A stretch of 63,676 nt of DNA, filler included, from Basidiobolus ranarum (taxonomy: Eukaryota), in assembly GCA_040143965.1 (NCBI GenBank). It is 22 parts of 22 records of this genome, joined end to end, with 100 filler letters (N's around TTAATTAATTAA, not from the genome) between each part and the next. Parts side by side here need not be neighbours in the genome. Positions count along the whole stretch, not along the records: positions 49,336 to 52,126 come from JASJQH010009853.1; 21 more parts are not named here. One strand, given 5' to 3'. The translations under genes were made by a program, and so were the position numbers. The notes beneath the pieces are model-generated. The model ran no database searches, was not told where the DNA came from, and saw only the letters and a program-made list of their open reading frames with translations. Of the stretch, positions 13,501 through 63,676 are shown piece after piece; position 1 is the stretch's first letter, and each line of letters starts with the position of its first letter.

Positions 13501-13508
13501 CAAAAATA

Positions 13509-17989: not shown

Positions 17990-19000
17990 GTTTCATCATT
18001 AGAACTTAACTAATTGTGTTGAATTTCTCTCAAAACTAAATAATATCTTTTTAAATCAAATTTTGCTTTATCTAAAGGTTTGGTCTACATATCAGCAATC
18101 ATATCTTTATTGGGGCAGTGGACAAGTTCAATTAGAGTATTCTTAACTGCTTTTCCGACAAAATGATGCCTAGCTTCTATCAGTATTCTTCCAACATGAT
18201 CTGAAGAGTTTTTTTCTAATGAAATACTTCTATGATGTTCTTCAAATACAGATATAGCACATGTTTGCATATATTACAAGTTTGTATATAACTTCCTTGA
18301 CCATGTAGCTTTTTTTGTAGTAGCAGAGGCAGCCATATAAAACACTTCTGTAGTGGAAAAATGTCATGAATGGTTGCTTCTTGCTACTCCAAGTTATAGA
18401 TCTCATACAATATAGAAGAGTGCACCTAGTTCTTATCTGCTATCATCAAGGCATCCTTACTAGTCTACATCCCTATAGCTCTTGAAGCTCAGGGCAATAT
18501 GAGTGCCAGATTATTTTGGAGCCAGATCCACAGTACTACTTGACTACCTGAGCATTTGTATTATTTTAGTTTTGTACTCAGATATTAGATTTTTGAGTTA
18601 CTGGCTGTCATTTCCTACTGCCACAGCAATATTGGGATGTGTACCTACCATTGGATGCACTAGGCCACTCTCTATAAACTGTATGGAAACAAGCTTTAAT
18701 TTGAGTCAATTTGAGCCAAAGTGAGCAAATTTTGAGTAAATTTGCATTGGGATCCATTGGTGTTAACACAGACTTGCATTGTCCATGTTGAAATACTTTA
18801 GGATGTCAAGAATATATATAGACTGACTCATCATTGACTTTCTTACTTTATCCACTTCTTGTAAATTGGATAAAAGTAAACAACTTCATTCTCATATATC
18901 CATAATTTGATATCATTTGGATTTGCTGTTTCTCTCATATTTGACTTCCTCTAGATCATTTTTAGCTATGTCCAGGATTATAGTTGTAATTGCATTGCCT
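17990..19000 (-). mobile_element. Decayed Ty1/copia RT/RNase H
   Basis: IELVHCPNKDMIAD; the sequence parallels 39836-40551; many stops. Confidence 0.8.
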
Positions 19001-21651: not shown

Positions 21652-22803
21652 GAAAATTACAATTTATGAAAGTTCAAGGTGCAAGTCATGCTGAGAGAGA
21701 GGGAGCTTTAGGATGTAGTCTCTGGAGATGAAAAGAAACCTTCTGACCCTTCTTTATTGAAAGCTTAAAAAAAAGAGACATGGAGGCCTTTAATGTCATT
21801 TGTCAAAGCTTGAAGGATTCACAACTGTTGAATATTCAATATGCCAAGACTTCCCATCAAGCTTCAATTATATTAGATGAGTGTTATGAAGCAAAGAGTC
21901 CTGCTAATACACTCTTTCTCAGACAAAAATTCTCCAATATAAAGATGGAAAAGTCTGACAGCATGGTTACTCATATTACAAATGTGAGATCCTTGGCAAA
22001 ACAACTTGAAAATGTTGGTGCAACTATACAGGAAGAAGATGCCATTTTGATTCTTCTAAATAGTCTACAAAAACAGTATTCAAACTTGGTCAAAGCTGTG
22101 GAAGCAAGAACCAACAAGTTATCTTTGGAGTTTGTAGTGGCAAGACAGATGGATCAATACCTGAGATGTAAGAATTTATAAAAAGAATCTGAGGAAGTTT
22201 TTTTTTGGAGCTTGGAAATGTAGCTTTGGCAAGTACAAAGGTTACAAAAGAAGAAAGCCAGGTTTAAGTTATGGTTGTAACAAGCCAGGACACCAGTTAA
22301 AAGATTGCAAATCAAGAAATTACAACAAAAATGAGAAGTCAGAATAAGCAAATCAGGTTTCAACCAAAGAGGAAGTTTTATTCATTTCTGCCCTATCAGT
22401 GACCTTTGAACAAGACAGTAAGCTGTGGCATATTGATTCTGGAGCCTCTCAACATTTCTTTAATCAAAACAAAACTGGTTTAAGACACTCAAAAGTGACA
22501 TAAACAAGAAGGTTTTTATGGAAGATGACAAGCCACTAGAAGCTCTGGGATTTGGAGAAATAGAAGTGGATCTTAGGGGCATCTCTGGGAACATTTATTT
22601 GACACTAAAAATGTGCTATATTTGCCTGAGATAGCAAAAAATTTGTTATCAGTGAGTTAAGCTATATTTGAGGGATATAGCTTTAATTTTGAAAAAAAAG
22701 GCTGTACAATCAGGGATCATAAAGGAAATTACATAGCTTCTGAAGCTAAGCAAAATAACTTGTATAAACTTCATTTTATTAGGCCAATATATGAACAAGT
22801 TAA
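21652..22803 (+). mobile_element. Decayed Ty1/copia gag-protease
   Basis: ENYNL*KFKVQVMLRERE; UBN2-type gag (ILLNSL...Y); decayed zinc knuckle GCNKPGH..KDC; protease WHIDSGASQH. Confidence 0.88.
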
Positions 22804-23154
22804 CCCTAACAGAAATTTGAGGATTGTTATTATAGGAAAACTGTCACAATTTTAATCCATTTGAGGTTGACCTTTTACTTACCGTCATAAAATCATCAAG
22901 TTAGATTTGATTTTGAGTCAATTTTTTCTGTTTCAGGAGTGAAATTTCAAGATCTCGCAAAATGGTTGCAAATGATTGGCTAAAATCTCAGAGAACTATG
23001 GATCAACACATGTGCAAAAAACGTAACTCAAATTTTACACAACTACCACTTGAATGCTAATTTGTCACCTTTGAAATCCCTAGTCTCTTTGATATATTCT
23101 CCTGAATATTTTTATAGAGTTCTTCATACCCAAGGTTTAGCTCATACCCAACAC
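22804..23154 (+). mobile_element. CACTA/CMC left terminus
   Basis: Starts CCCTAACAGAAATTTGAGG; matches 4708, 5588 and 57796. Confidence 0.85.
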
Positions 23155-23429
23155 NNNNNNNNNNNNNNNNNNNNNNNNNNNNNNNNNNNNNNNNNNNNTT
23201 AATTAATTAANNNNNNNNNNNNNNNNNNNNNNNNNNNNNNNNNNNNNNNNNNNNAAAATCAGGAACCAAAATCAAACTTTTGCTGAGAATCATATCCAAA
23301 ATAGCATGCCTAGATAAATTACAACCTTAACTTGTCTGTGATCTTTATTTGACTGAGAGTAAGTTGGGATAACTTGCTGAAATACGGTTACTTGTATTAA
23401 GGATCTGAAAAATTCATTTATACTAATAT

Positions 23430-23777
23430 TGTTGAGGTATCTTAGGAGTTGCTGGAAGTGGCTGGGAGAACTAGAGGAATTAGTGGTTTTCACTTGATGA
23501 TTTATTGAGTGGAAAGTTGACATTTATAGTTTTGTCAAAGGGTAATCAAGTAAACACTTAGAATGTGTTAAAGGTGGTCTCAGCAAAATGTGTGCAAAGT
23601 TTGGGGCCTCCAGAACAAGTTTGAAAAGTTCATATATCTGAGAACTTCTAAGTCGGTGTAAATATTCTAAGTAAATTCCTCTTGAGAATAGTGAGTAATA
23701 TCTTGGTGAAATATATTATAACTAAATACTAAGCTATATATGACTATATAGATGTTCAGGCTATGATAATTTCAACA
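23430..23777 (-). mobile_element. Copia solo LTR family A
   Basis: TGTTG...CAACA, flanked by AATAT/GATAT (4/5 target-site duplication). Confidence 0.82.
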
Positions 23778-24723
23778 GATATTGGGTATGAAAAAGAGTA
23801 AGGGCAGTGTTAAATTGATAGAGTGTGGATAAAATTGAAGAAGTGGTGAGGGCATTGAAGTAGTCAGAAAATGGTCTCCTTTTCAAGATCTCTGATATAT
23901 ATCCAAAATTGATGTAATGATTTTAAACTTTAAATATGCTATTTATGAATATCTTTGGTGTTTTGATATAATTCCATCTAATCCAGGGATAGTTTTTGGA
24001 GATGTTGAGCAACCCATTTGACAAATGCAAAGATTTCTACCAAGTTTGCTAAGTAAAAGAGTGAAAATATTTAGTTTCTTTGTGCAGATATGAGTAAACG
24101 CCCATTGATCATTTTTTTGGAGAAGTTTCAAGACAAGTATTGATTCCACCGGATCACTCAGCTAAACAAAATTGACATTCTTCGTAACTGGATGGAGGTA
24201 AATATTTTTACACTTGGTTCATAGTTCTGTCTAATGGGCATTTAACTAGGTATGTTCCTTCTATTAAATTTCCAAATAAACCATTTGTTTGTATACTTGG
24301 CCAATGCAAGTGGGTGAGTGATTCATCATTGATGTTACCGACTACTGATGTATAGGATTTAGCATTGTTCGAAAGATATGCCGTGTGCAAATTATGCCCA
24401 ATAGAATACAGATCCAAAGCAATAACAATCGGTATTCATAACATGGCAAAATTTTAATCCGAGATCGGACCCACACGGAAGGAATCTTCGATCCTTCTGG
24501 ATTCAATCTTCGGATGAAATCTTACTCTCAATGAAAGACTCGGTAAAGGATATTCTAACACCAAGGATTCGTTTGAAGCATACAATTAGCCAGTGATTAT
24601 TTCCAAACTGTTATTTATCGAATAAATATCATTCAAAGGTAACGTGTACTATTTGCCTATCTCGAACATGCTTTACATCTTTATTGAAGTATATAAATTT
24701 TCACTAATTCGGTATTTACATAT

Positions 24724-26056
24724 TTAAACAAATGAAAATTTTGTCACATGTCGCGAGACATCATTACCAATATGCTTTTCATTCAGTTTTGATACAATCA
24801 CTTGCTTTAAACACGAGTGATTTGTAAGTCTAAGCAACCCATGTCTAGTGAAGTTTAGGTTTCCAAGGTTCAGTGTGTGAATTTTAGGGCATCGTGCTGT
24901 GATCTCGTATACTAGACGATCTCCCATACACACCTCGGTTTCCTTGAAGTGCCCAAGATATAGCTGCTCTAGATTTGGACAGCCTGCCAGTACGTATTGT
25001 AGCTCTGGAGCAGAAAAGGTCATGCTCGTGATATCGAGTGAGTGGAGTTCATGTACATGCTTGCGGAGTGAAGGAAGCAGGCTGGTAATTGTTCCTTCAT
25101 TCGATTGAAGAGTGAGTACCCTCAGTTGCATCGAGGACCTGGTTAGTAACCTATCCCAGGAAAGATTGGAGATATCTGAGCCCTGAAGTTGAACTTGCTG
25201 TAACTGGTTACCTCGATCAAAGACTGGGGCAATGCACTCATCATTGACTGGTGTAAATCCACGGAGAATTAGTTTTTGCAACTTTGAGCATTCTTTCAAT
25301 TTCATAATAGCACCACAGATTAGATCAAGCTCATCTTGCTCACATCTGCTCATATGAAGTTGATCAACGTCAAATGTGAGAGAAGTGAGACTTGCTTTCT
25401 GATTATTCACCAGGGCATCCATCACCAGATGGATAGAGGTATATCTTTCACACTTGACATACAGCTCTTTCAAGCTGTTCTGGTTCAGATTAGTGATTGC
25501 CCGGGCAAGTTGGGTACCATATAGTTTACATGTAGAGATGTGTAATTTCTTCAAGTTTGGGCAGGAGTTCAGAATAGTTGATGCCTCAGAGTCATCAAAA
25601 GCATCTACCCTGATATGGAGCATCTTCAGAGCTGGAAGATCAAGGCCACTGGGTATCAACTCTCCCAGTAGAACTTTGTGTGATCTCAATTCCACGATAC
25701 AATCAGAGCAGTCTTGCGATATAAGTGACCACAGAGACTGGGCGATCAGAACTCCATGTGCTGGCTCATCAGAGCCAAATTGTTTGTCGTGGAAAACTGA
25801 TTCAATCCAACCAAGGTCAACAGTGCGTAGATATGTGTGGTACTGGTGCGGCAGTGATTTTGTGGTTATGCTCTTTTGCATGGCTTTTAGTAACTTGATA
25901 TTTACTCTTTTCATTTGAGTGAGGTTATAGTTCCTGGTTTTTATGAGGCTCCAGGGGTTCTTATAAAGTAGGCGACAGCATTGAGTACTCCATTGACCAT
26001 TGATAAGAGAACAATTGAACAAAGCATCGATATCATCTCTTATCCAGTGGAGGATA
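24724..26056 (-). CDS. F-box/leucine-rich-repeat (RNI-like) protein, 5'-partial
   Basis: CSLIN.QW...CCRLLY F-box tail; repeated CPNLKKLHI/CPNLEQLYL/CPKIHTLNL leucine-rich repeats. Confidence 0.8.
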
Positions 26057-26324
26057 NNNNNNNNNNNNNNNNNNNNNNNNNNNNNNNNNNNNNNNNNNNN
26101 TTAATTAATTAANNNNNNNNNNNNNNNNNNNNNNNNNNNNNNNNNNNNNNNNNNNNATTGTGTCTGATTGTGATGGCATAGTGCCATATTGTTCCTTATA
26201 GTGTCTGATTGAGTGTTATAGGACCCAGCCATGGTAATTGACAGATTGGGCCTGATGGTGTACTAGCAGGCTGGATCAAGTGGCACAATCTGACCTGGTC
26301 TGATGGAACAAGTCTAATACTCTG

Positions 26325-31511: not shown

Positions 31512-31858
31512 CCTTTTTGAAAACTCAATTCCAATTTTTTGCTGCGACAGTCTCTTGCCGTGAATTCCTTAACTCGTTTGCACATTCTTCAAGGCTTGAC
31601 CAATACCCAATAATACTTACTCAGCTATATAGAGGAAAATTCAATATGAATGAGCCATTCAAGATAGGATCAAAGTTTGAATCAATTGGGAAAATGCTTG
31701 AAAACGTCAAGATACCATCATATTTTACCAGGACTCCCATCAATATCCACTCATCTAGGTGTTTATTCAAATGCAAAGACTGGAAGTATTGGATTTGTAT
31801 ATATTCAAGTGGAATTTTGAAAAGATTTCTGCCTGATAAGTATTGGCAACATTGGGAG
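31512..31858 (+). mobile_element. CACTA/CMC transposase fragment in frame with the PTM1 exon
   Basis: IPSYFTRTP...FKCKDWKYW...YS..ILKRFLPDKYWQHWE; last 68 nt identical to 20352-20419. Confidence 0.8.
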
Positions 31859-31958: not shown

Positions 31959-32031
31959 CCCATTCTGGTGGCGTCGTCCCTATTACTACCCAGGATATTA
32001 TCCCTACTATCCACCGGAATATTACTATTAG
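31959..32031 (+). CDS. Secreted Arg/Trp/Tyr-rich prepropeptide, type B, 3' fragment
   Basis: Identical to 34374-34446 (PFWWRRPYYYPGYYPYYPPEYYY*). Confidence 0.85.
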
Positions 32032-32948
32032 CCGATCCGTCATTCTAGCTACCCACCAGGATGTTTTCACTAGTTGAACCATATATCACTATATCAATAT
32101 TTGGAATTGATGCGGTATTTAACAGTATCGCATAGTCATATTTGTATACGTGTATCGCAAAGAAGTCAGGCAAGAGTGCCAACTAAATAAACCAAGCAAG
32201 CTATCAACTAATATTCATCTGGGTGTCTATCTATATGATGAAATTTCGGGATTACTCGATTCTATTACTTCAACATAATCTTTGTAGTCATTGTCATTAA
32301 AGTTTAATGATTTTACCGTCAGAAATGCGCAACAATGATTCAATAATCCACTATGCTTAATGTCAGATCAAAACTACCGAATATAAGCTTTCAGCAACAT
32401 GATTTTCGCAGTAATCTTCTTTTCCATTCAATATACTATTGATTTAATGAAGGGTGCCGAGATCATCGGTATCATGATGTTACAAGGGCTTGCCTAGAAA
32501 AGCTACTCTATAGCTTTCAATCCTCCGAAGTGAATCACATTTGATAACATTACCAATTTCTACACAGGGTAATGCCAGCCATTCTCATGTCACTTTCTCA
32601 TTAATTAAAATTTCTCGTACTTATTCAATTGCGTCAGTCGCCATCCATAAGCGACTTTTACTCATTTATTTGAGTTGTTCCTTGCGGATTCAAAGACATG
32701 TCGATCTATAGTCCCACTAGATAGTATACTTCTACTTTAAATTGCCAAGTGCGATTAGTTCTAGTCTTTGACTATTGAATGAACTCTGATCCGATTGACT
32801 TGCTAACAAACAAACACGTACCGTCATCCAAGCCGAGAAAGAAAGTTAAATATAGGTAATTAAATTGGGCTGCTCTTATAAAGACAAGTGGCTCCTCACT
32901 GCCGAAAGAACATCCCAGGCATCGCTGCACTGTTTACCACCTACTGAA

Positions 32949-34155: not shown

Positions 34156-34446
34156 ATGAAGATTCAATTAGTTCTCTTATCCACTGCTTTCCTTCTTGCG
34201 AGTGCTCTTCCAGCTCAAGAAGCTTCTCCAGATGCAACTGCTTTGGATTCTGGCAATGACATTGGGGAACTGAACAACATTCAACCTGATGACATTGGTG
34301 ATGATTCCGCGGATAATGATGGTGAAGAGTCTGACTTGCGACTCCGCGGTTGGAGACGCCATAGACGCTTCCACCCATTCTGGTGGCGTCGTCCCTATTA
34401 CTACCCAGGATATTATCCCTACTATCCACCGGAATATTACTATTAG
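34156..34446 (+). CDS. Secreted Arg/Trp/Tyr-rich prepropeptide, type B (96 aa)
   Basis: Paralog of 32949-33236 with the same promoter and signal peptide. Confidence 0.88.
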   Translation: MKIQLVLLSTAFLLASALPAQEASPDATALDSGNDIGELNNIQPDDIGDDSADNDGEESDLRLRGWRRHRRFHPFWWRRPYYYPGYYPYYPPEYYY

Positions 34447-35129
34447 CCGATCCGTCATTCTAGCTACCCACCAGGATGTTTTCACTAGTTGAACCATATA
34501 TCACTATATCAATATTTGGAATTGATGCGGTATTTAACAGTATCGCATAGTCATATTTGTATACGTGTATCGCAAAGAAGTCAGGCAAGAGTGCCAACTA
34601 AATAAACCAAGCAAGATATCAACTAATATTCATCTGGGTGTCTATCTATATTATGAAATTTCGGGATTACTCGATTCTATTACCTCAACATAATATTTGT
34701 AGTCATTGTCATTAAAGTTTAATAATTTTACCGTCAGAAATGCGCAACAATGATTCANNNNNNNNNNNNNNNNNNNNNNNNNNNNNNNNNNNNNNNNNNN
34801 NTTAATTAATTAANNNNNNNNNNNNNNNNNNNNNNNNNNNNNNNNNNNNNNNNNNNNCTACTATATAAGTCACCATATACTCTTAAGAATAAACTAACTA
34901 AAACACACTATCATAAGTTGCTTCTAATACTCAAAGTCTACCCCATTATGTCAAGATCCTCCAACAATTATTATCCAGGTTGGTTTTAAAACTCATTAAC
35001 TCAGTGTTTGAGTTATTGAGAAATTGATTCTCAGCCAAAAGCAAATTCTCTTGATTAGAAGATTTGAGATTTTCGTTGATGCATATATTACTTCTGGAGT
35101 TGATGATTTGATTTATGCCAGCAACTAGG

Positions 35130-36190: not shown

Positions 36191-37754
36191 TTTTTAAGTC
36201 AAGTAATTGTTAATATAGTATTGAAATATGAAATAAGTTAGTATTAGGCTATATAACTATATAGAAATTTAAGCTATATTAATCATTAAGGCCAGATTCT
36301 CAAACATATCATTATCCATACTTTCAATGTTTGTACTAACTTATACAAATATCTGGCAAGTTATGGCTGAGATACTAGAGTTTAGCATATTTATTGCTTA
36401 TTTATCAGTTATTAAAGTAGATAAAAGTCATGAAGTACATTCAGGTATATGTCAGAAATGTGGGGGAAGGCTAAACTTTTTGTTCCAAGATTTTTACTTT
36501 ATATAATATCCTGAATACATGCTTACCATAGAATAAACAACTGCTGCATATTATTTTAGAAGTTGAAGTAATTTGGGTGCTGTTGGAAGAGATTAAGAGA
36601 ACTATAAGAATTGGTGGCTTTCACTTAATGATATATAGAGTGAAAGTCAAGATTTGTACTTTTGTCAAGAAGTAGATATACCAGAATGTGTAATATGTCA
36701 GGAAGGTCCCAGGAACATATGTACAAGGTTTAGGACTAGTTTGAGAAAATCATATAGTCTTTGAACTTTAAAATTGGCCTCAATGTTGAGCGTAAATTCC
36801 TCATCTCATAATAACATAGTGAAATTTAGGTAGCTAACTATATGACTGTATAGATACTGAACATTTCTTTCCACTTCAATGTCCATCCACAATCTTACTA
36901 ATAGCGCATGAAAACGATAAATGTGAATTTTTGAAATCACTATCTAGAATAATAACCTGGTCCCAAATATTTGGATTAGGTCAAATTCCTTGCACACTGC
37001 TATTAAGGAGCTCATATTATTTTGCTTGTCAATAATTCCTGAGGTGGTTTATAAGAACGAGGATAGTTTCGAATGTGAGTGATGACTGCTCCTTGTCAAA
37101 GATTAAGGAAATTGATACTGAACGATGTAAAAACCTTCAGAACCTCTGGGGGTAAAATGAGCTATGCTGGAGTGAGTTTGGATGATTCTGATACGTCAAG
37201 TTCAATAATGCTAACATGTACACTAATGCTATGTTTCAATTTTTAGTTCATCGTAAGCTTATATCAAGTGATTGTGAGGTTTGCGTGGTCGATTACACTG
37301 TTCGAGAGCGTGATGAGCTACAGAAAACCGAACTGCTCTCAGAGTTACATCAGCCTAAATGGTTCTCTGTGGCTTAGCAATGAAGAGGACGAAGGTATAG
37401 TACCCAGTCACTAGATTTTCTTGGTTAATAAAACCCACAAAGCATTAGCACAACAACGGTTTCATCTCATTCAAAGGACAGCAAAGAAGTCTGATTGGAT
37501 ATCGAATCGCAGTGCACTGGGGAAATCAATCTCATCTACTCTCCGATGGTTGTATGTGTCGGACACTCAATCGGGGCATCATCAAATTGGAATGTGGCCT
37601 CTCATACGTCATACGTCATATCGATGATCAACAGACCCTACCTAAGTAGCACCTNNNNNNNNNNNNNNNNNNNNNNNNNNNNNNNNNNNNNNNNNNNNTT
37701 AATTAATTAANNNNNNNNNNNNNNNNNNNNNNNNNNNNNNNNNNNNNNNNNNNN

Positions 37755-41346: not shown

Positions 41347-43217
41347 GTTCTCTCCAAGTATGATGAGATTAGGCTTGATTTTCTAAATTGAATTTTTCTG
41401 AATTATCTGCACCCCAATTTACACTTTGTAGAATACAAGTTTTCACGATTGGATAAATGTAGACGATGCGGATAGTTGCGATGTGAGTTACTCGAAGAAA
41501 GAATCATTGTAAAGATTTCGAATTAAGGGATATTAATGGTAATGGTAGAATTTCTAGTTATATACTTGAAGTCAGATCCTTGCAATCCTCAATCTCGAAG
41601 TTTTCTAGAGTTTCCTTCATCTCCGTTAATTTGGGGATTTGTGAGTAAGCATCAATATAATGTGAAGAGTTTGAAGCATAGTGTGCATGCAAAATATCTT
41701 CAAAATTTAATTGTAAGGCCAGCGTCTAATATGGCCTAAAGCACGCATCACTTAAGAATTTATGAAATATATCTCACATCGTATAAAGGCATTAACTTAT
41801 TCCATACACACTCCGTGTTACCTCACTTCTTAGTTTGAGGGGAACGAAGAGTGGAATCCCTTCAATCCAAGTAAATTAGGTAAACGTAGTATAGTCAAAA
41901 ATTCGAATCTACTCCTTTATTGAAGTTGACATATGCTATGTTACTAGAGATTGAACCATCCATTCTATCTTAAATTTTACAATGGAGACTTCGATTCTCT
42001 TGAATTTGTCTGCTGTGTGTGTCTCAGTAAAAGCAGCTATACCTTATAGTGCTACATTGGTTCATTAGAGTAGCAGGGATAATTTCTTTTTGCGATATAT
42101 CATCATCTACTTAACTCAATACTCAGACTAACTGGGAAGTTCTCAGATTATATGATTTTCTCAAACTTGTCTAAAATACTCCAAACTTTGTGCACATGTT
42201 CCTGGAACCTTCCTGAATATATTCTGCATGTTGGTTTGTATACTTACACACAAGTAGGTTTGTTAAGTAACTCACCAATTCTTCTGGTTCTCCATATCAC
42301 TTCTAACAACTCCCAAAATACTTTAACACTAACATGGTATTATTAGTCCACTGTGTAGTAAACAATGGGCACATACAGGATAGCTTTCTTAGATTTCAAT
42401 TGTAATTGAGAGAATTTGGAGTGCCTGGATAGAGTTCTGATTAGCGAAGTCATTGTAAGTTTGAGAAATATGTATTAGTCAATCACAAGAAAAGGAATAG
42501 CTTTTAGAAGGAAATACTGAAGACTCAATGATTTTACATTAAAAACATGCCCCCCTCCGTCCCCCCTCTCCCCCCGGCCAACCCAAAGGGCCCCCGGGGG
42601 AGTAAAATTTTCTTTGAAGCAAGTCATATTTGTTGGAATACAATAAGAATTTTTCTTTTCATCCTGAATTGCATACCAAGTACTGATGATCAAAGAAACA
42701 GCCATGTTCCCCTACTCCAAGATGATCTCATAAGTGAGGGTTTGCGTATTTAGACTATATAAAAAGCTTCTCATATTGACCTTATGACAGTTGAACTAGG
42801 ATTCATAATATGTCAAGTAACTGGGATATCGCCAGTATCTATGCAGTCAAAGTGGTCATAGATTTACTTCCTCATATTGTAACTCTTTTTTCATACATCC
42901 TGACCAATATTATTGATCGGCATATATTTGTTTAAAAGAATGCGTTTAGCTAAGATATATCAACATATAAAGATTGTATTACCCGTTTTAAGTAAAACAG
43001 CAACAAAATGGAGTAATTCATCAATAAATCAGTGTCCAATTCCTAGTATTTGTGTTCTTATAAAAATACTTTCAGGAGATTCCTAACCGAAAGTAAGCTA
43101 GCAGTATTAGAAGTTATGTTCCCTGTCAAACTCTGTGGATTAGACACTCACAGGCAAATAATAAACTAAAAGAAGTTTTAATGCATCTAGCTAGCCTGGT
43201 GCTTGTCAAGTTATCAC

Positions 43218-43447
43218 TGTTGAAATTAGCATTGCCTAAACATCTATATAGTCATATATAACTTAGTACTTAGTTATCTTATAACTCACTAAGATATTAT
43301 CAATTATTCTCAATCGGAATTTACTTAGAAGTTTGAAGATATATAGATTTTTCAAAGAAGCCCTAAACTTTGCACACATGTTCCTGGGACCTTCCATAAC
43401 ACATTCAACACATTAGTTGATTTACATCTTGACAAAACTATAAATGT
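43218..43447 (+). mobile_element. Copia LTR family A, truncated by contig end
   Basis: TGTTGAAATTAGCATTGCC. Further partial copies near 19100-19250, 36560-36860, 42130-42335, 50465-50745 and 63415-63640. Confidence 0.8.
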
Positions 43448-44539: not shown

Positions 44540-45651
44540 CTTGATCCAGCCTTCTAGTACACCATCTGGCGTGATCTGTCAACTAGCATGGCTGGGTCCT
44601 ATAACACTTGATTGGACACTATAAGGAATAATATGGCACTATCCCACCACAATTGGACATGATGATTTATTGGAGATATTGTGCCAGCCCGTACCAAGTT
44701 ACCTGATTTAGTATTGCCAAATTACAATTTTGGGTATCTGACAAAGCAAGTAACCTTGCAACAAAGGGCTCTTTTCAATCTGCTCACTGGCTTTTGCATT
44801 GTTTGAGCACAATAGCTGCAACAAAACCCAATCCATGGACACAGAGTAAGTACCACTATAATTTGGACCAATTTGTTTGGGTAAAAATCTGACAGTATTT
44901 CTAGGAATGCTGCAAGACAGACTTCTTGGTGAGAAAGATTGAGATATGCAGTATTATTCTTTAGCCATGGGGTAATCTATTCAAAAAAGACACTTCCACA
45001 TGTGGCAGGACATTTGTTGACTGCAAGACAGGAATATTTTAGCTGAATTCTTTATGGAAACTTGCCAAAATTCAAGAGCTTATTCTGATTGTGATTGGTA
45101 ACAAGAGTCAGCTATTTGCCAGGTGTCAGTGCTATTGAAAATTTCCGATGTTTAGCAGTTTTTCACCATTAGCTTGCTGGTGGAGAATATTGATGTTTTT
45201 GAGTTATGTTGGATCAGTCAGGTATATGCATATGTAGAGACTAAACACAACAAGATTCTTGTATTTTTTTATTCTCATTGTGGCTGGAATAAAAAGCCTA
45301 AAATATCTAAATAAAGGCATGCATATTGATTCAATTCCTATAGAAAGCCTAAAACATTGAAATAAAGGCATGCATATTAATTCAAATTCCTACAGCAGTA
45401 AACCCAGTAATTTGCCATTTGAAAATTAGATTTTTGCAATTATTGTGGGGCATTAAATAACACATGCCAAACAAGAAGATCAATACTTCACCATGTATGA
45501 ATACCATCTAAATTCCATCAGGAAGCCACCAACTCACCATCAAAATTCCTGCAAGAATGCAAGCCATCAATGTTGTAATGGTTCTCTGACAGTTTTGCAA
45601 TACAGAAGGGTGGATCCAATCCAGATTAAATTGATTTGATTTTTGTTAGCA
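44540..45651 (+). mobile_element. CACTA/CMC 3' region and right end, preceded by a dispersed repeat
   Basis: 44750-45651 matches 20780-21651. 44540-44730 matches 20040-20251, 28873-28957 and 26157-26315(rc). Confidence 0.78.
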
Positions 45652-45899
45652 GCACCAGGTGATCAAACAGATCCAAGCAGGCCCAATTACCATATTCAAG
45701 AGTCTGGAATTGGGTACATGCCAGCACAGCTCAGGAATATAAGGTCCAAATTGTGAAAGAGGGCCCAAATGGCCCTCACACAGAGTTTTGGGTATCTTTG
45801 ATGGCTAATTAGTGCCAGGGTTGATTTGATAACCAAACTTGGATTTTAACAAACTTACTAAAGACAGAAAATTCATTGGTTATTTTGGGTGTTTGAAGT

Positions 45900-46252
45900 T
45901 ACCCACAGCTTTGATGGCAATATGTAGAATTGCAAGGCCTGACTGGTAGCTAAAAATTATTCCCAATCATCTGGAATAGACTATACAGAAGGCTTTGCTC
46001 TTATAGCAGAGTTTAACTCAAATAAGTAGTCTTAACAATATTTCCTAAATATCAGTTTGGTGAATATTAAATACATGTTGAACTAGCATTTTTGAAAGGC
46101 AAATTTGTCACGAATATTTATATGGACCAGCCAGATGGATTTGTGGACCTGTAAAACTCCAACAATGGTTGCAGACTCCAGAAAATACTCTATGCCTTAA
46201 AATAATGTCCACCAGCTTGGAATAGTAAGATAGACACTATGATGGAAAGATA
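45900..46252 (+). mobile_element. Decayed Ty1/copia RT fragment
   Basis: KA*LVAKNYSQSSGIDYTE.FA; IYMDQPDGF. Confidence 0.75.
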
Positions 46253-46341
46253 TATTGAAATTATTTTGGGAGAAATATTGGTCTGGCCAGGATTTGAACC
46301 TGGGGCCTCCTTCACTCTAGCAAGGTGCTCTAACCACTGAG
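46253..46341 (-). mobile_element. tRNA-bearing LTR, partial (tRNA-like 46279-46341 on the - strand)
   Basis: Matches 51804-51892. Confidence 0.85.
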
Positions 46342-46442: not shown

Positions 46443-46937
46443 GGTGTATACTCCTCCTCCTACCTTGCCGAGGGCACTTTTGTATTTAAATATAACACAT
46501 CCGATGGCAAAGTTCATCGTATCATTACCGAGTCCAACAACTTCGATAAGCTACGTGAAATCATGTATTCGAAAGAGCACTGTCTGGATAATGAAGATCT
46601 AGATATTTGTTATGTTGATGATGAGGGAGACATTGTAGTAATCTCTAATGATACCGATTTAGAACATGCTGTCAATATGGCTAGACATCATGGTTTGGAT
46701 CGATTGAAACTCTCCATGAGTGCGGATTTTGTAGAAGACGGTCATGAAGAAATTCTATCAGAGGCTCGTGAATCTACTCCTACCCCTGCTCCTAGAGAAT
46801 TCATTCCCGCTCCTGCCATTCCTGAGCCTCCCAAACCCAAGAGCTCCTTTGGACTATCTAATGAATTGTTATATGGTCTTGCTGGAGGTTTTGCCGTTGC
46901 TACAGTGATGGGATTTGTTATGTCTAGAATGAAATAA
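46443..46937 (+). CDS. CBS/PB1-domain protein (Mug70-like), C-terminal part
   Basis: PB1 domain: FVFKY..SDGKVHR ... ICYVDDEGDIVVISNDTDLEHAV..AR; C-terminal TM anchor. Confidence 0.8.
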   Translation, partial: GVYSSSYLAEGTFVFKYNTSDGKVHRIITESNNFDKLREIMYSKEHCLDNEDLDICYVDDEGDIVVISNDTDLEHAVNMARHHGLDRLKLSMSADFVEDGHEEILSEARESTPTPAPREFIPAPAIPEPPKPKSSFGLSNELLYGLAGGFAVATVMGFVMSRMK

Positions 46938-50049: not shown

Positions 50050-50450
50050 AAGGTCGTAACCACCACCCATATGAGTAACTGCGAGCGTTAGAATGTTGGT
50101 ACGGTGCACTAAATAGAAGTTAACATTTTGTAGGTCATATTCAGATAGAGATTGGTAGTACTTGGTGAATGCATCCATGAGTATATTACTGCCTCTTCAC
50201 TTAGTTGTCCACAAGCAACGTTTTCTCCCAATATATCCCAACGTAGACCTTGCTCAATGAGAGCGTGATCCATTTGGGAGTGACCAATACGGTCATGGGT
50301 TAGACAATGGAAATTGCCTTGCACCACAGAATATTCCCGACATATTTGATTCAAATGACTAGAAAGTATTTAGCTTAGAATCCAATATACGCTAGATTAT
50401 ACTTGCGCCTATCCCGAAATCGTCCATTAATGAAGCAATTTCCTGCATTT
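50050..50450 (-). pseudogene. CAP/SCP-domain protein pseudogene
   Basis: LTHD, GENVACGQ.SEEAVIYSWMHSP; frameshift after SPS; LTR immediately upstream. Confidence 0.65.
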
Positions 50451-50995
50451 AGCTCTTCCATATTGAACTAAGATATCTCCAACTATTCTCAAGAGGAGCT
50501 TACTTGAAATATTTTTACCAACTCAGAAGTTCTCTAATACGTAGATTTTTCAAACTTGTGCTAGAGGCCCCGAAAGCTGCACACATGTTCCTAAGACCTT
50601 CCTTAACATATTCCAAGCGTTTGTTTCTTTAATTCTTGATAAACTATAAGTGTTGGTTTTCTACTCCATATATCAATAAGCAAAAACCATCAATTCTTTT
50701 AGTTCTTCAGACCACTTTCAACAAACTCCCAAAACACTTTAATAGGAGGGTCTTCTTGTGCATGAGTATATCTAGTTGGCCACTAATAGATAAAACATTT
50801 GTTGTAGATGCTGGAGTAAATAAGCTGTAAATTCCTGAAAACTTTCCAACCTATTATCTTTGAGGTCTTGGAAGATATATATTAGTTGGCCTAAAAAAGA
50901 GTAATGAGACCTGTGAAAATTGTAGAGCTTTAACTGTAATATGGCTAAAAGTAAAAGCTTTATTAGATTATAAATAGGGTAGAAAACTTTGAAAA

Positions 50996-51663
50996 TGTCA
51001 AAGTATTTTGAGAGCCTGTTGGAAGTGGTTTGGAGAATTAGAGAAGTTGGTGGTTTTCACTTATTAATTTATTGAGTGGAAAGTAGATAGTTTCATTTTG
51101 TCAAGATGTAAGCCAACCAACACATAGGATGAGCTAAGAAAGGTCTAACAAATATGTGTGCAAGGCTTGGGGCTTCTAGCACAAGTTTGAAAAAATCTAT
51201 ATATCTGAAAACATCTAAGTTGGTAAAAATATTGTCACTAAATTCCAATTGCAAATAATGGGTAATATCTTAGTGAAGTATAAGATAACTAAACAGTAAG
51301 CTTTATATGACTACATAGGTGTTTAGGCAATGCTAATTTCAAAAATCTCCCTCAACTAAATAATCCTATTAACCAATGCTAAGCAAAGTCTAAATTTCTC
51401 AAATTTAAGTCTAGCTAATGGGTGGGTTAATATGCCAGCAATCATACCTTCTGTAGAGCAATAAGTTAAGTCAGTAAACTTACTCTCTGTAGTCTCTCTA
51501 ATAAAATGGTATCTAATAACTGTATGTTTGCTTCTATTATGAAAAGTGGGATTGCTAGCTAATTTGATACAACTTTTATTAACTTGAAATATTTTAGTTG
51601 GTGAACTTTGAGAACAGCCCCTATTGGTTAGAGCTTTCCTAACCATATTGCTTTGATTGTTGC
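50996..51663 (-). mobile_element. Ty1/copia RNase H end, polypurine tract and 3' LTR (family A)
   Basis: NPTFHNRSKH..IRYHFIRE; TTGAGGGAGAT tract abuts the LTR at 51344-50996. Confidence 0.88.
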
Positions 51664-51803
51664 TGTTGGATAATTAATCTTTATTAGACATCATAGTTAA
51701 CTTTAGTTATAAGACATATATCAGAAACAGAAAGCAATATATCTTTTACCCCTATATTATAAATAGGAATATCTCTACATCTATATAACAAGTATGTCTT
51801 ATT

Positions 51804-52085
51804 TGTTGAAATTATTTAGGGAGAAATATTGGTCTGGTCAGGATTTGAACCTGGGACCTCCTTCACTGTAGCAAGGTGCTCTAACCACTGAGCTCCCAGT
51901 CCTTGTATGCTATGCCTATATTGCTAGGGAACCTTAACCTAGTCTGTCAATGTATGGTACTTTGGCATTTCAGCTATACAAGCAACTGATTTGCCTGAGA
52001 CTTTGTGTTCAGATACAGTCACCATACTCCATATTTTCCTCTTTGGGAATTACTGCTTGTACCACAAGTCACCAGACTTTCAACA
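51804..52085. mobile_element. Solo LTR (282 bp) containing a tRNA-like element
   Basis: TGTTGAAA...TTTCAACA inverted termini; perfect 5-bp target-site duplication TTATT (51799-51803 and 52086-52090). Confidence 0.9.
51830..51902 (-). ncRNA. tRNA-like cloverleaf within LTR (anticodon position ACA)
   Basis: 73 nt; D arm GCTC/GAGC, T arm with TTCAAAT loop. Confidence 0.75.
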
Positions 52086-52226
52086 TTATTAACCCCACTT
52101 ATCTATTATATCTTATTACACAAACTNNNNNNNNNNNNNNNNNNNNNNNNNNNNNNNNNNNNNNNNNNNNTTAATTAATTAANNNNNNNNNNNNNNNNNN
52201 NNNNNNNNNNNNNNNNNNNNNNNNNN

Positions 52227-53510: not shown

Positions 53511-55017
53511 ATGTGCAAGGTGTTCTTTTTTGTACAATATCCTTCTCATGCTGCAATACCAACATTTAAAGAAGCCCCACTATTATTTCCCAAATTCTTG
53601 TGCTATGAAAGAAGGAGGCTTCATAGAAAAAGTAATCAAAAGCACAGTCACTGTACAAAGCCACCAGCTGCACATAGCCTGGTGTATAACAACAGTAATA
53701 AGTGCACTAAATCAACTTTAGTATTGCCCATTGAGTCCACTGACTGTAGTTTGTCTCAAAGTTTTGGTAACACTATCAAAAGTCAAGATACTGTGGAGTT
53801 ACCACATTTATAAGACCAAGATGATGTAGGTCAAAATGCAACTTTGGTCAAACCAGTAAGTCCAGACAAATTTGAGGACTTGCTGCTAGATGTGGACCTT
53901 GGTTATTCCAGTACCAATGGTAATATATCAGAAGTTGAAGAAGAAGATGATGGTTTTGTTATGGACTCTTTGTTATTGGCAAACATTAGTCCACTCATAA
54001 CACTTACTATAAAGGAAGCAGCTGTGATTACTGAGGAGTGGAGAGTTCAATCTAATCTTAGCAACCACAGGTTCATTGGCTTTCTTACACTTGCATCACA
54101 GTTGATTGGTACCTGTTGCTTGCCACAGACCTGACAAAAGTGGGAAGCATTTGTCAATAGTATGAGTTATAATCCTTCAGTAAATAAACTACCTTCATGT
54201 CCAAATGGTTGTTTGGCTTTCACCAGTGATCTGAAAAACCTGAAGTCATGTGCTGTTTGCACACAATTGGCAACCACTGAATCAGGTAAATATCATTCAT
54301 ATTTGGCCTACATACCATTGATTCCCCATCTTAAAGTTGTGACAAAATCACCCAAATATAGATCATTGCTCCAATACTAAAGTACTCACCATAAAGCTGA
54401 TGGTATGACTGATGTACATGATGGACATCACTACCAGAATCTGAAGAAGTCAAGGTTTCTTTGAGAACATGTATGATCATGCATTTGCATTGGCTCTGGA
54501 TGGTTTCTCACTAAACAAATATATCATTGGAAAGGCTTGCTGGCCAATAATTTTAATCAACTTAAATTTTCCTCCTTCTGAATGGTATAAGAGTCATAGT
54601 ATTTTGATATTATCCATCATATCTGGACCTAAATCACCAGTGCTTATAGACAGCTTCTTGGAGCCCTTGATTGTGGATTTTGAATGGTTATCTAATGGGG
54701 TTCAGATGGGTGAATATTTTATTAAAGCTAATATCATTGTATGTATTAGTGACACTCCTGCCACCAGTAAACTGGGAGGTTTTTGTGATTACAATGCACT
54801 ATCTTGCTGTAGATTTTGTCAAATCAATGGAGTTTACTCTAACAAGCATACACATTACTAATATCTAAATACAACACTAAACTTCATGATTTTACCATCA
54901 AGAGCCCAGCCAGATTTCAACATGATCACTGATATCAATTCACCAAATAGGCAGTGTAACATCAAACTTGGTATTAGCTGTAAGCCTAAGATTATTTTGC
55001 TAAAGGGGATCAGCTAG
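53511..55017 (+). mobile_element. CACTA/CMC (Tnp2, Transposase_21-like) transposase pseudogene
   Basis: CPNGCLAF...CAVC; DGF...CWPIILINLNFPP; ISGPKSP..IDSFLEPL; DTPA..KL.GF....CRFC. Confidence 0.88.
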
Positions 55018-55125
55018 NNNNNNNNNNNNNNNNNNNNNNNNNNNNNNNNNNNNNNNNNNNNTTAATTAATTAANNNNNNNNNNNNNNNNNNNNNNNNNNN
55101 NNNNNNNNNNNNNNNNNGCATACAA

Positions 55126-55198
55126 GGACTGGTAGCTCAGTGGTTAGAGCACCTTGCTAGAGTGAAGGAGGTCCCAGGTTCAATTCCTGGCCAGACCA
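55126..55198 (+). ncRNA. tRNA-like cloverleaf within LTR (anticodon position AGA); LTR ends at 55224
   Basis: GGACTGG TA GCTC AGTGGTTA GAGC A CCTTG CTAGAGT GAAGG AGGTC CCAGG TTCAATT CCTGG CCAGACC A. Confidence 0.8.
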
Positions 55199-55299
55199 AT
55201 ATTTCTCCCTAAATAATTTCAACATATATTAGAGTAAATGTGATTGAAATTGATCATGCCTGAGGGTGATGAATAGTGCCAAATTGTGCCACATAAATT

Positions 55300-56849: not shown

Positions 56850-57795
56850 TATCCCCATAATTAAATCAATTCTCCCTCTGAAGATAAACTGTTTTCATTT
56901 CACCAGTATGTGGACCTGTTCTGATCTGCTGGAGGTAGCTTGGCTTTAACAAGGTGCTCTTTGTGTGCTAGAGCTGGCTTGAGTGTATCTTTCCTATCCC
57001 TGAGCTGATTGGTGTTAAATTGACATTCTCAACAACTTCCCATGGGCCTTTCCACTAGGGTTCAAACTTTAACTTAGTTTTGTTATTGATGAGTATATAT
57101 TGGCTCTTTTGTAACTCTGAGTACTTTATGGCACTTTCAAAACAGTTTTCATATGCTTGGCTTATTCTTTTGACCACAATATGGCTACTGATCTGTGTTG
57201 CTTAGGTTTTTCCATACCTCTTGCTCTATATTCTGCTAGATTGTCTGAGTTCTTGAGATCCTGAAGGTTGCTTCTGATGGTAGCTCCAGCAAATATTGGG
57301 CATTGTGGCTACACCAACAAGAAGGGTGATTGACCAGTTGTGAGGTGGTATTAGATCTGACAGGCCAAGAGAGCTTGTTGTATTTATTGTTGCAACTTGT
57401 GTGTAGCTCCTTTGCACCACTTTGTGGGCATCCCACCAAAAAACTATTGAAGCTCTAAACTGCCCCATTAGTTCTTGGCTGATATGTTGAAGTTGCTGGA
57501 TGCTTAGTTCTTTGGAGCTCCAGATGGTGTTGTAGAGAGTCTGCCATGGAATTGGCTCCTCTGTTAGTCAGAATTTTGGTTAGGCATCCAAATTGTAAGA
57601 GTATCTCTGCACACATGAAGTGGACTACTTCTTGGTGGGTAGCATTCTTCAGGATATCTTACCATGATCAGTGCTAACTAATATCCACTGAAAACCAAGG
57701 TCAGTCTTTGCCCATGTTCCTTCAAAGGCATGTTTCAATCTTTGAAAAGGCCTAGTGGTAGGTAAAGATTCCATCTCAGAGGTTTCTTCTCTGGG
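56850..57795 (-). mobile_element. Decayed Ty3/gypsy-type integrase
   Basis: RPFQR, QFGCLTKILTNRG, GPY/F-like KL.P*WKGPW.V. Confidence 0.65.
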
Positions 57796-57905
57796 CCCTA
57801 ACAGAAATTTGAGGATTGTTATCGTAGGAAAACCGTCACAATTTTAATCCATTTGGGGTTGACCGTTTACTTACCGTCATAAAAACGTCAAGTTAGATTT
57901 GATTT
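57796..57905 (+). mobile_element. CACTA/CMC left terminus, CpG-intact copy
   Basis: CCCTAACAGAAATTTGAGGATTGTTATCGTAGGAAAACCGTC. Confidence 0.85.
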
Positions 57906-60008: not shown

Positions 60009-60764
60009 TTAAGCAAAACCTAGATTACTTACATCCATATAGGCTCCTGGGAATTTACTACTAACTGGAAGTCTAAGATCAAACGATTCAAACGCATCGA
60101 ATGCCTCTAGAACTCTCCTACAGTTTTCTTCTACACGATAGTGCCTTTGGCGACTATCTACGCGTGCAAACCCTTTATTACATACGATGCAATGATATGG
60201 CTTATCCCCGGTGTGCAAACGTACATGCCGTTGAAGGTCATGTTTTCGCGTGAATGCACGTTCGCAATGATTACATTGAAACGGCCTGGTGGTAGGGGCT
60301 GACATCGTTCTTTTTATTAAGTGTCGGTTGGAGGTTTTGGAGTCTTTCCTGATCGAGGATTTCCTTTTAGGAGACACTTGTTTGTCCTCTCCAATGGGCT
60401 GAACCATCTGGTAAGGCATAAAGCATTCAGACTCGAGTGTAGAAAAGTGTGGCGAAAGGTCAATTCCATCAGATTGAAGGCAGAAGGCAGAGTTCATAGC
60501 AAAATTTAAGGATTCAAACTGAGAGGGAATGCTACCCTGCATCAACTCTGGCGCTTCCGGGGAGGGAAGGTCGAACTCGTCACTGAGACTAATGATAGAT
60601 GGCGAAGAGGTACGCTCTTCAAAAGTAGAAAACACCTGCTGTTGGTGTGATTGTTGTAAACTGTCTGTAGAGACTCTCTCGTAAAGATATGCGGTATTCA
60701 TATCTGCAACCCAAGTATTGTCGGGCAAAAAGAAGGGCAAGCTCTCAGCTGGTAGATCTGTCAA
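60009..60764 (-). CDS. C2H2 zinc-finger transcription factor, 5'-partial
   Basis: FQCNHCERAFTRKHDLQRHVRLHTGDKPYHCIVCNKGFARVDSRQRH. Confidence 0.92.
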   Translation of the reverse strand: MTDLPAESLPFFLPDNTWVADMNTAYLYERVSTDSLQQSHQQQVFSTFEERTSSPSIISLSDEFDLPSPEAPELMQGSIPSQFESLNFAMNSAFCLQSDGIDLSPHFSTLESECFMPYQMVQPIGEDKQVSPKRKSSIRKDSKTSNRHLIKRTMSAPTTRPFQCNHCERAFTRKHDLQRHVRLHTGDKPYHCIVCNKGFARVDSRQRHYRVEENCRRVLEAFDAFESFDLRLPVSSKFPGAYMDVSNLGFA

Positions 60765-62572
60765 GAAATTGGATTTAATTCATTCAGATTTNNNNNNNNN
60801 NNNNNNNNNNNNNNNNNNNNNNNNNNNNNNNNNNNTTAATTAATTAANNNNNNNNNNNNNNNNNNNNNNNNNNNNNNNNNNNNNNNNNNNNAACTACTAT
60901 ATTGATGGAGAGGGTGGTCCTTACATTACTACATACGTGAACTTCTATCCAGGAGAGGGAGTATCGTTTATCTGGCATGACGATGTTCAATATTAGACTA
61001 CATTATAGATATATTTAGAAATCAGACGGCAAATCAGTGCGAGTTAAATAGTCATTATTAAATAACACACGCAAGCTTGTCTATTAGATACAAATAAATT
61101 TCGCTTGGTTTAAATGAGCTCGAGACAGTCTTAAACTATGTTCGGTTAAAATGAAAGTGATAACAGTTAGTATAATCTCAATATTGTTCATGAGAAGTAA
61201 ACCGTTCTTATTATGTGACACATAAACGCTAGTTAACCGAATAGCGTATCTATATCTAAAATAGGTAGCAATGGTGATTGATTTCAATCCATTAAACCGC
61301 TAGTAAATCCATTAAACCGCTAGTACATAGAAGATAGTGCGACCAGCTCGTACTTGGTAACATATTGATACCTGTGCTAACAACGTCAAAAGTCATAGCT
61401 ATCTTTCTTTGGTAATTCAATCAAATGGCGAAATTGCCGTTGATATTGCGGTGACTTCAGAAGTTTTGAAGCTCATCAGGGACTACGATTTTCCTATTAT
61501 TCACCTATTATTTTCCTTACCACTGATGGATAGACTGCTAGAAATGAAAACCTTAATTGGCCTCTTTCTCAAGTCCATATCTATAATAGGCAAGAGAAGG
61601 AACGAGGTGCCTTATACATAAAAGTGTTGGAGAATATATCGATCTAAAAAGTAGTTACTACATATGGGATACTGCTCTGGACCAAAATAGACCGATTAGA
61701 ATGGATTGTAACTTTATTTGGCAATCCATTTTGAAGTACGATCTCATGGATTGAATTGAATAATGGAAGTGACTGTATATACGAAGTAACCCATAGAGCT
61801 GGCATCATACTGTCAATAGTATTGGTCAATATTCAAAATCACCGTTGAAATTTTCTTAGTCTTACCTAGCGCCATTTTGATTTCTCTCTTATCTGACCAT
61901 GTAAGCTTCTCTGAAAAATCAATTGACTTCTGAATACATACTCTGCATTCTCTATTGGAAAATTTCGAACTTTTGGTCTAATCCATAGTGCATTGGGGGG
62001 TAGAATATTGATTTATTTACTTCATTACTGATTTACTATCTGACCTCCCTCGGTATGCTGTAAATACTGTGATATGATGGAACGATGCTTGGTTAAACCT
62101 CTGGTATTTTAGGTATTAGTAGGTGGAAACAACTTTTGATACTCCTACATTTGAAAAGTTACAAAAAGATATGTGGCATCCATAGGAGTACTGAAAAATC
62201 TTGTATTACTGATAAATATATGATCGGTATTACAGAAGTTTTGATTTGACATTTGGCGCTATATAACAGTAACAAAATGCTTACTTTGCAAATCTCATCA
62301 AATGCGCAATGGCCTTACTGGTCTTCTCCAGCTGCAAAAGGCTGCGTTCAGTATCTAGCTATCTGGAGCCTTAGACCTCAAAAATAGCTTCTTGTACCCA
62401 GAGAGTGTGGCCAAAAAAAAAGTTATTTTCAGAATATCAATGTACAAATATTGGAGTTCAAAACTACCCTACTGGCAGTGCTGAATGTAGATGTATGTTT
62501 AACAAAGAGTTCTAGAATTAGCTTCATAATGTCAGATATTTCTGCCTGAGTACTAATCAAACCGTATATTCC

Positions 62573-62902
62573 TGTAGAAATTAGCATTGCCTAAACACCT
62601 ATATAGTCACATACAGCTTAGTATTCAGTTATTCTATATTGAACTAAGACATTACCCATTATTCGTTATTGCAATTTACTTAGAAGTTCTCAGATATATA
62701 TATTTTTCAAATTTATGCTAGAAGCCCCAAACTTTGCACAAATCTTTCTAAGACCTTCCATATTATATTTTACACCTTAGTTTCTCTACATCTTGGCAAA
62801 ACTAAAAATATCAACTTTTAGCTCAATAATTCAAAAAGTGAAAACCACTGATTTCTCTAATTTACCAAACAACTTCCAGCAGGCTCCCAAAATACTTTAA
62901 CA
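62573..62902 (+). mobile_element. Copia solo LTR family A
   Basis: TGTAGAAATTAGC...TACTTTAACA, flanked by ATTCC/ATTAC (4/5 target-site duplication). Confidence 0.82.
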
Positions 62903-63676
62903 ATTACATGTGTAGGTAGGTTTGGCTGTAAATGCAGAATAATTGCTACTGCAAAACTGTATGTCAAAGGGACAAAACAAATAATGGTGCTATTGTAACT
63001 TGCTAGGCTCTTACTAGTTTGGTTTAAATTGGAAAAATATGTAGTGATAAAATGTATTCGAAGTGTCTTCTTTCCGCCTTGCTCTCATAGCATTTCTGCA
63101 AATGAGGTCAAGTTATATATTGTGCTAAATTTTTGGTCCATGTGTAACTATATTTCATCAGAGTTACAAAAACATTTAAAACAAGTGCCACAAAAGAAAC
63201 ATGTGGAAGGCAATAATAATGGTAAAATTTCACATGCCATTGATTCAACTGCTTTGACTTTATTCACCAACTTACCTATACACACTGAAGCTCCAGCCTT
63301 AGTAAGTGTGGTAAATGGATATTTCAATATATTTATATCTTTAGTTTTATCATATATATAGTGTTGAAATAAATATACTTGCCACTTAGTCATTCTATAT
63401 ATAACTAATACATTACTACTATTCTCAGTTGGGATTTTTTTGGAAGCTTAAAGATATATAAGTTTTTCAGTCTTTTCACACATGCATCTGGGACCTTCTT
63501 ATTCTTCATCTTTTCTTGTTTACCTCCTGACAAAACTATTAATGTCAACTTTCAACTTAATTAAAAACAAGTGAAAATCACCAAATATTCTAGTTCTCTA
63601 AACCACCTTGTATAAACTCCCAAGATGCTCTAATAACAAAAGATATTGTAGACAGCTGACACCAGAGATACATGTG

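Follow-up and report, generated by a model that had tools for sequence, protein, structure and literature searches.

What is the 282-bp unit at positions 51804–52085 of this Basidiobolus ranarum sequence, and how does a tRNA-like module come to lie inside it? The window, i.e., the whole stretch of DNA that was analysed, comprises 63,676 bases (37% G+C over the window) in 22 contigs of ~2.8 kb each with N linkers between them, giving ~62 kb of sequence. Repeats shared among the 22 contigs are plentiful, as detected by blastn. The unit starts with TGTTGAAA (51804–51811), ends with TTTCAACA (52078–52085), and has TTATT on both sides, which bears out the first-pass annotation, where a 282-bp solo LTR with paired ends and a perfect TTATT target-site duplication had been described. 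The unit, the duplicated target and the module are located as follows.

51804–52085, minus strand (the strand on which the tRNA-like module is sense): unit best read as a complete 282-bp solo LTR, with TG..CA ends, 8-nt inverted termini and a 5-bp duplication
51799–51803, unstranded: left copy of the target-site duplication TTATT, a direct repeat
52086–52090, unstranded: right copy of the target-site duplication TTATT, a direct repeat
51830–51902, minus strand: tRNA-derived module of 73 nt (ARAGORN; Rfam RF00005), with ACA at the anticodon position

The inverted termini are perfect over their 8 nt. Given the base composition of the window, chance would produce 8-nt inverted ends at fixed positions with a probability of ~2.5e-5 and a fixed-position direct repeat of 5 nt with one of ~0.0013. 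The combination of TG..CA ends with a 5-bp duplication is the mark of insertion by a retroviral-type integrase. The unit thus displays the features of a solo LTR, namely TG..CA, short inverted termini, a 5-bp duplication and dispersed copies with identical termini. We found no internal terminal direct repeats within the 282 bp, so the unit is not itself a miniature LTR-internal-LTR element, and its interpretation as a complete miniature LTR element was ruled out. It is best read as a solo LTR, an assignment that draws on the end structure and on analogy, given that two of the copies described below have ~2.7 kb of flank with no second LTR.

Using 51804–52085 as the reference in a blastn search of the 22 contigs, we identified three further copies, all cut by contig ends, so that the family is present in four of the 22 contigs.

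55118–55224, plus strand: LTR copy cut by a contig start, comprising the last 107 nt of the LTR (blastn, 96.3% over 107 nt)
46253–46341, minus strand: LTR copy cut by a contig end, comprising the 26-nt tail and 63 of the 73 tRNA positions (blastn, 95.4% over the 87 nt at 46255–46341)
2912–3026, minus strand: LTR copy cut by a contig start, comprising 115 nt of the tRNA-distal end (blastn, 94.8% over 115 nt)

Copies in four contigs, three of them covering the tRNA, had been reported previously. The count of contigs stands, but the contig end cuts the copy at 46253, leaving 63 of the 73 tRNA positions, those on the 3' side. The copy at 2912–3026 stops short of the tRNA region, and the three copies that cover this region (3/3) all carry the module at the same place with identical junctions, indicating that it is integral to the family and not a one-off nested SINE. 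The family is moderately young. Exact-pattern scans of viral, metagenome and prokaryote genome contigs gave no matches to it.

The boundaries of the repeat are exact at both ends. At the terminus on the tRNA side, the three copies that reach it are alike up to ...TTTCAACA (TTTCAATA in one of them) and have unrelated flanks beyond; in the copy at 46253–46341 the terminus is mutated to TATTGAAA. At the opposite terminus (position 3026), the flank runs on as part of a repeat whose three paralogues, at 3938, 21017 and 44998, are uninterrupted and therefore serve as empty sites for the LTR copy at 2912–3026, which is inserted within the long LTR of a degenerate Copia element. The copy at 46253–46341 abuts the relic of a Copia reverse transcriptase and has 2705 nt of flank without a second LTR, and the copy at 55118–55224 has 2681 nt of flank without one.

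ARAGORN makes two tRNA calls in the window, 51830–51902 (minus strand) and 55126–55198 (plus strand). The Rfam tRNA model (RF00005) matches the same intervals with 48.7 bits (E 2.2e-7) and 57.8 bits (E 7e-10), respectively, and gives a truncated match of 28.1 bits in the third copy (46253–46341). A 73-nt tRNA fold lying 26 nt from one terminus, as originally proposed, is thus recognised by both methods in the reference copy. The cloverleaf ends 26 nt from the terminus at 51804, and the module occupies positions 184–256 of the 282 on its sense strand, followed by a 26-nt tail that ends CAACA. A combined pattern (the 3' half of the A box, 25–45 nt, then the B box) has three matches in the window, all in LTR copies, versus 0.01 expected by chance. 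No tRNA-like sequence was found in the window outside the LTR copies, either with the tRNA model at E<=5 or with the A/B-box pattern. Both boxes named in the first-pass annotation are recognisable, although the A box that it gave, TAGCTCAGTGG, belongs to the copy at 55118, and the copy at 51804–52085 itself reads GAGCTCAGTGG; the B box in the copies is GGTTCAAWTCC. No 5S rRNA match was detected in the window at E<=5. Weak Rfam matches to 'Plastid-ycf2 5UTR' (55126–55199, minus strand, and 51829–51902, plus strand; 28–32 bits versus a gathering score of 65.7) were rejected as spurious, as they are below the family threshold and fall on the antisense strand of the tRNA-like module.

The modules differ in their state of preservation. 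The one at 51830–51902 is the most decayed, with three private changes (U8 to G, a broken T-stem pair and a changed anticodon). The best-preserved one lies within the copy at 55118–55224 (55126–55198, with AGA at the anticodon position) and retains U33, a purine at position 37 and the A and B boxes in full. Of the three modules, two have AGA at the anticodon position and one has ACA. Mismatches occur in all copies at 3-70 (A-A) and 31-39 (G-G), and the variable loop is short on a 73-nt body. Judging from these sequences, the module is not a plausible working tRNA, because an AGA or ACA anticodon is combined with a short variable loop and with the mismatches at 3-70 and 31-39. Thermodynamic folding is undistinctive (z-scores of -0.24 and 0.03), and the cloverleaf is the lowest-energy fold in the 55126 copy only. 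Substitutions are equally frequent in the module (4 of 73 positions) and in the rest of the LTR (6 of 115 positions), suggesting that inserted copies drift neutrally.

If the unit is an LTR, a second LTR and an internal region are expected in at least some copies. No two-LTR copy, PBS or PPT is visible in the ~62-kb window, where three of the four copies are cut by contig ends. Five termini can be seen, two belonging to the solo copy, one in the Copia LTR relic, one in the reverse-transcriptase relic, and one in unknown sequence; no internal sequence is common to them. A candidate inner junction at 3026/3027 would place the module antisense, but it is more probably the edge of a nested insertion. 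A run of at least four T is absent from the tRNA-sense strand of the LTR and occurs once on the other strand, which is weak support for the tRNA-sense orientation, since a strand of this length (282 nt, 25% T) will frequently contain no TTTT purely by chance. The earlier suggestion that the element encodes its own primer gained no support. None of the four flanks, each a putative PBS at most, pairs with the tRNA-like RNA better than expected by chance: the top local score between flank and module is 12, a value equalled by 37% of shuffles, and the longest exact run is 4–6 nt.

Two of the flanks lead into Copia relics, and the window contains the following parts of Copia elements.

20709–22178, plus strand: 5' part of a degenerate Copia element, with a probable ~787-bp LTR (20709–21495) and a gag ORF (21747–22178)
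45883–46244, plus strand: frameshifted relic of a Copia reverse transcriptase, matching RVT_2 (PF07727) profile positions 19–138 of 244

The gag ORF matches Retrotran_gag_2 (PF14223, E 4.6e-30) and is accompanied by weak traces of CCHC and Pol_BBD; relatives of greater length were sought for this ORF, without success. The probable ~787-bp Copia LTR, in contig 8, has TG..CA in four of four copies and an imperfect inverted terminus of ~12 nt, and the gag start lies ~90 nt beyond it. The reverse-transcriptase relic, detected in two frames (Pfam with stops read as X, E 2.5e-10 and 0.003), ends 8 nt before the LTR copy at 46253 in contig 16. In contig 2, the 282-bp LTR sits ~313 nt inside the Copia LTR. 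The Copia family represented by 20709–22178 is thus the target of one nested insertion, and it is also a candidate helper family.

This degenerate Copia family is found in three of the 22 contigs (20709–23154, 3027–4452, and 44751–46252). Contig 2 contains two copies, one directly after the other, joined at a common TGTTAC, and the copy in contig 16 lacks gag through integrase. The contig-2 junction was also considered as an LTR-PBS junction, a reading kept as unlikely, as conservation there is unexceptional and the region is accounted for by a Copia LTR that is longer and has better inverted termini. The window contains other repeats as well. A repeat of ~350 bp with 70–80% identity occurs in at least seven contigs (732–1049, 18983–19266, 23428–23791, 36652–36768, 43217–43447, 50447–50740 in inverted orientation, 50990–51342, and 62572–62908), and an inverted pair of it lies ~460 bp upstream of the solo LTR. 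Another repeat family shows 85–94% identity (4708–5057, 5569–5721, 22783–23154, and 57788–57905). Two of its copies are in direct orientation in contig 2, ~880 bp from start to start, and they could be the two LTRs of an additional small element. An ORF at 54445–54858 (plus strand), in the contig next to one LTR copy, carries a Transposase_21 domain (tnp2, CACTA/EnSpm-type, E 9.5e-17) and, on the basis of this domain, is taken to be a DNA-transposon relic.

The window also includes pieces of host genes that appear intact, in the form of long uninterrupted exons. These encode a UNC-93/MFS transporter (7026–8462), a sulfate permease (9240–9764), a second MFS protein (13479–14081), a PB1-domain ORF (46443–46934) and a C2H2 zinc-finger ORF (60012–60779). 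The UNC-93/MFS reading frame is intact over 479 aa and is 90% identical to a protein of Basidiobolus meristosporus and 89% identical to one of B. ranarum. An LRR reading frame (24727–26100) has its sole foreign relative in B. ranarum (50% identity), and its contig has a repeat in common with the contig of the 282-bp unit. Some contig ends overlap (20352–20419 and 31791–31858, 100% identical; 31959–32342 and 34374–34757, 98.7%), and the contigs concerned are probably neighbours or alternative paths left unjoined by the assembler.

LTRs with an embedded small-RNA gene are known from other eukaryotes. The first-pass annotation had named only Cassandra as a precedent, a framing that is out of date, as LTRs bearing tRNA sequence have been published under the name Helenus (TRIMp3; Kojima 2024, Biology 13:119; PMC10886601). 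Like other TRIMs, which consist of two LTRs and a short non-coding internal part with PBS and PPT, Helenus elements are small (total lengths of 311–1263 bp), and their LTRs contain tRNA-derived sequence with conserved A and B boxes (box A TRGCY..YGG, box B GGTTC); their target duplications are of 4–6 bp (PMC10886601). Fungal Helenus have 5-bp duplications, frequent solo LTRs and Copia-like PBS regions, and their mobilisation by Copia has been inferred; their reported hosts are the Pucciniales and three Agaricomycetes (PMC10886601). In rust genomes, most of the genes predicted for the expanded tRNA types are Helenus sequences, Ser-AGA calls by tRNAscan among them (PMC10886601). A role as Pol III promoter, one of the readings offered in the first-pass annotation, has been proposed for Helenus, without experimental validation, and no Helenus shows complementarity between module and PBS (PMC10886601). 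The main text of that study does not mention Basidiobolus, Zoopagomycota or Mucoromycota, although a supplementary listing is possible. Beyond it, our literature searches found no other description of tRNA-bearing LTRs, nor of such elements in Basidiobolus; a 2026 paper, in the part of it that was accessible, merely cites Helenus.

The Basidiobolus LTR resembles Helenus in several respects. As in LTR-1_PTrit and Helenus-9_PSt of the Pucciniales, the LTR contains tRNA-derived sequence with conserved A and B boxes, and as in fungal Helenus there is a 5-bp duplication, a solo LTR with its duplication, and Copia in the same genome. In both cases the module is called a tRNA by gene finders (e.g., Ser-AGA) yet is not a credible tRNA, and module and adjacent sequence show no complementarity. 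It differs in its host, Basidiobolus (Zoopagomycota), and in having no full-length two-LTR copy, PBS or PPT in the window. The likeness is drawn from published descriptions and may reflect either homology or independent origin. The Basidiobolus LTR is therefore a new host record and not a new kind of element, the kind having first been described in 2024 as Helenus.

Other known systems fit less well. Cassandra, a group of plant TRIMs with a 5S-derived Pol III promoter, likewise has a small-RNA gene with an internal promoter embedded in its LTR, and its transcripts start within the 5' LTR copy and terminate within the 3' one (PMC10886601). In contrast to Cassandra, the module described here is derived from a tRNA and not from 5S, the host is a fungus, and no T-run terminator follows the module inside the LTR. 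With ordinary Ty1/Copia solo LTRs the unit shares its TGTTG...CAACA ends, 5-bp duplication, size of a few hundred bp and nesting in retroelements, but it differs from them in carrying a full-length tRNA-like cloverleaf and in having no significant similarity to the Copia LTR of the window. A tRNA-derived SINE has its tRNA head at the 5' end, a 3' tail that is A-rich, made of simple repeats or derived from a LINE, and target duplications of varying length. SINE2 elements resemble our family in having a tRNA-derived part with A and B boxes and dispersed copies. However, the module lies away from the 5' end of the unit, which has TG..CA ends and a fixed 5-bp duplication, and an A-rich or LINE-like tail is missing. 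A reading of the unit as a SINE fails because of the position of the module and the absence of a SINE tail.

We consider it probable that 51804–52085 is a solo LTR from a family of tRNA-module LTRs with the architecture of Helenus (TRIMp3), including the steps of Pol III transcription and Copia mobilisation that this architecture suggests. Analogy with Cassandra and Helenus suggests that the module would provide an internal promoter for RNA polymerase III, acting on the tRNA-sense strand of what would be the LTR of a two-LTR element. With the tRNA in sense orientation, the first 183 nt of the LTR would correspond to U3, and the tRNA with the 26-nt tail (99 nt) to R-U5. A Copia-type element may supply reverse transcription and integration of the resulting RNA in trans; its integrase would give the 5-bp duplication, and inserted copies would then decay neutrally.

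A different arrangement, which we regard as unlikely, is that the LTR runs in the opposite orientation, with the module antisense near the 5' end of U3, and serves non-autonomous elements derived from Copia; the module would then be a passenger, a boundary bound by Pol III/TFIIIC, or a landing beacon for Copia integrases. Several observations point this way. In contig 2, the LTR end ...TTTCAACA directly precedes homology to the 5' region of the Copia family on the Copia sense strand, and in contig 16 a Copia reverse-transcriptase relic on the same strand reaches the other end of the LTR. Two copies lie beside relics of one Copia family. In both, the orientation would render the tRNA antisense, which slightly favours this arrangement, and two of the four LTR-bearing contigs are among the three contigs with the Copia family (hypergeometric P = 0.07). 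Moreover, one Helenus has an internal part that matches the 5' internal part of a Copia element while its LTRs do not match (PMC10886601). However, since the contig-2 junction falls ~313 nt inside the probable ~787-bp Copia LTR (TG..CA in 4/4 copies, imperfect inverted terminus of ~12 nt), it looks like an ordinary nested insertion; conservation across this junction is not special, and the same Copia 5' end is found in contig 8 without a 282-bp LTR ahead of it. In contig 16, reverse-transcriptase homology continues to within 8 nt of the LTR and leaves no room for a separate PPT. Local alignment of the 282-bp LTR with the Copia LTR gives nothing significant (the best score of 19 equals the maximum of 200 shuffles). 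Finally, the Copia relics are 76–82% alike by blastn, whereas the LTR copies are ~95% alike, which makes a young element nested in old relics the simpler reading. If the contig-2 junction were nevertheless a true LTR-internal junction, the module would be antisense in the U3 of LTRs serving Copia-derived elements. Ty1-type Copia integrases target Pol III genes. The module could then be a Pol III/TFIIIC-bound boundary or a beacon drawing such integrases, which would account for two of the four copies touching relics of one Copia family. It is also rather unlikely, though conceivable, that this is an independently born tRNA-in-LTR lineage in an early-diverging fungus, in which the module is not, or not only, the promoter of the element.

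The lack of a visible partner LTR, PBS or PPT, the fit of all copies in the window to a stand-alone unit, and the perfect 8-nt inverted termini could be taken to mean that the 282 bp are a whole non-autonomous element with short inverted ends, moved by a DDE transposase/integrase and containing the tRNA piece incidentally. We judge this improbable, as TG..CA ends together with a 5-bp duplication characterise insertion by a retroviral-type integrase, the inverted termini are just 8 nt long, and the sample is the ~62 kb of the window. We know of no fungal DNA-transposon superfamily that makes 5-bp duplications, and some fungal Helenus families are likewise solo LTRs of which no full-length copies are kept (PMC10886601). 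It is less probable still that the association is accidental, the tRNA-like piece being an independent SINE or a tRNA pseudogene inserted into one LTR copy. A check for such an insertion, as put forward with the first-pass annotation, revealed among the covering copies in the window none that lacks the module, which is present at the same position and with identical junctions in three of three covering copies at different loci. It is 183 nt inside the unit and not at its 5' end, is without an A-rich or simple-repeat tail, and has no tRNA-like counterpart in the window beyond the LTR copies. SINE insertion into an ancestral LTR is nonetheless the proposed origin of Cassandra, Ajax, and Helenus (PMC10886601), and the family may have begun in this way. 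We give equally little credence to the idea that the LTR carries a working tRNA gene and that the family spreads functional tRNA genes, for which the 57.8 bits, complete A and B boxes, U33 and purine at 37 of the best copy might be cited. The AGA (Ser) anticodon comes without the long variable arm of serine tRNAs and is replaced by ACA (Cys) in another copy, neither being accompanied by the features of its isotype, all copies are mismatched at 3-70 and 31-39, changes accumulate in the module at the same rate as elsewhere in the copies, and most Helenus modules, in which isotype and anticodon disagree, have been judged non-functional (PMC10886601).

The reading of 51804–52085 as a solo LTR of Helenus architecture adds Basidiobolus, a zoopagomycete, to the rusts and the few mushrooms from which tRNA-bearing LTRs (Helenus/TRIMp3) were known. 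Either this architecture has a longer history in fungi than published records suggest, or it evolves repeatedly. The four copies per 62 kb come from short, repeat-rich contigs, and because short contigs over-sample repeats this density is not to be extrapolated to the genome; the family may nonetheless be abundant, and it may spread Pol III binding sites. Given that both ARAGORN tRNA calls in the window (2/2) are LTR-borne, and that such modules inflate tRNA gene counts, tRNA annotation of genomes of this kind needs masking.
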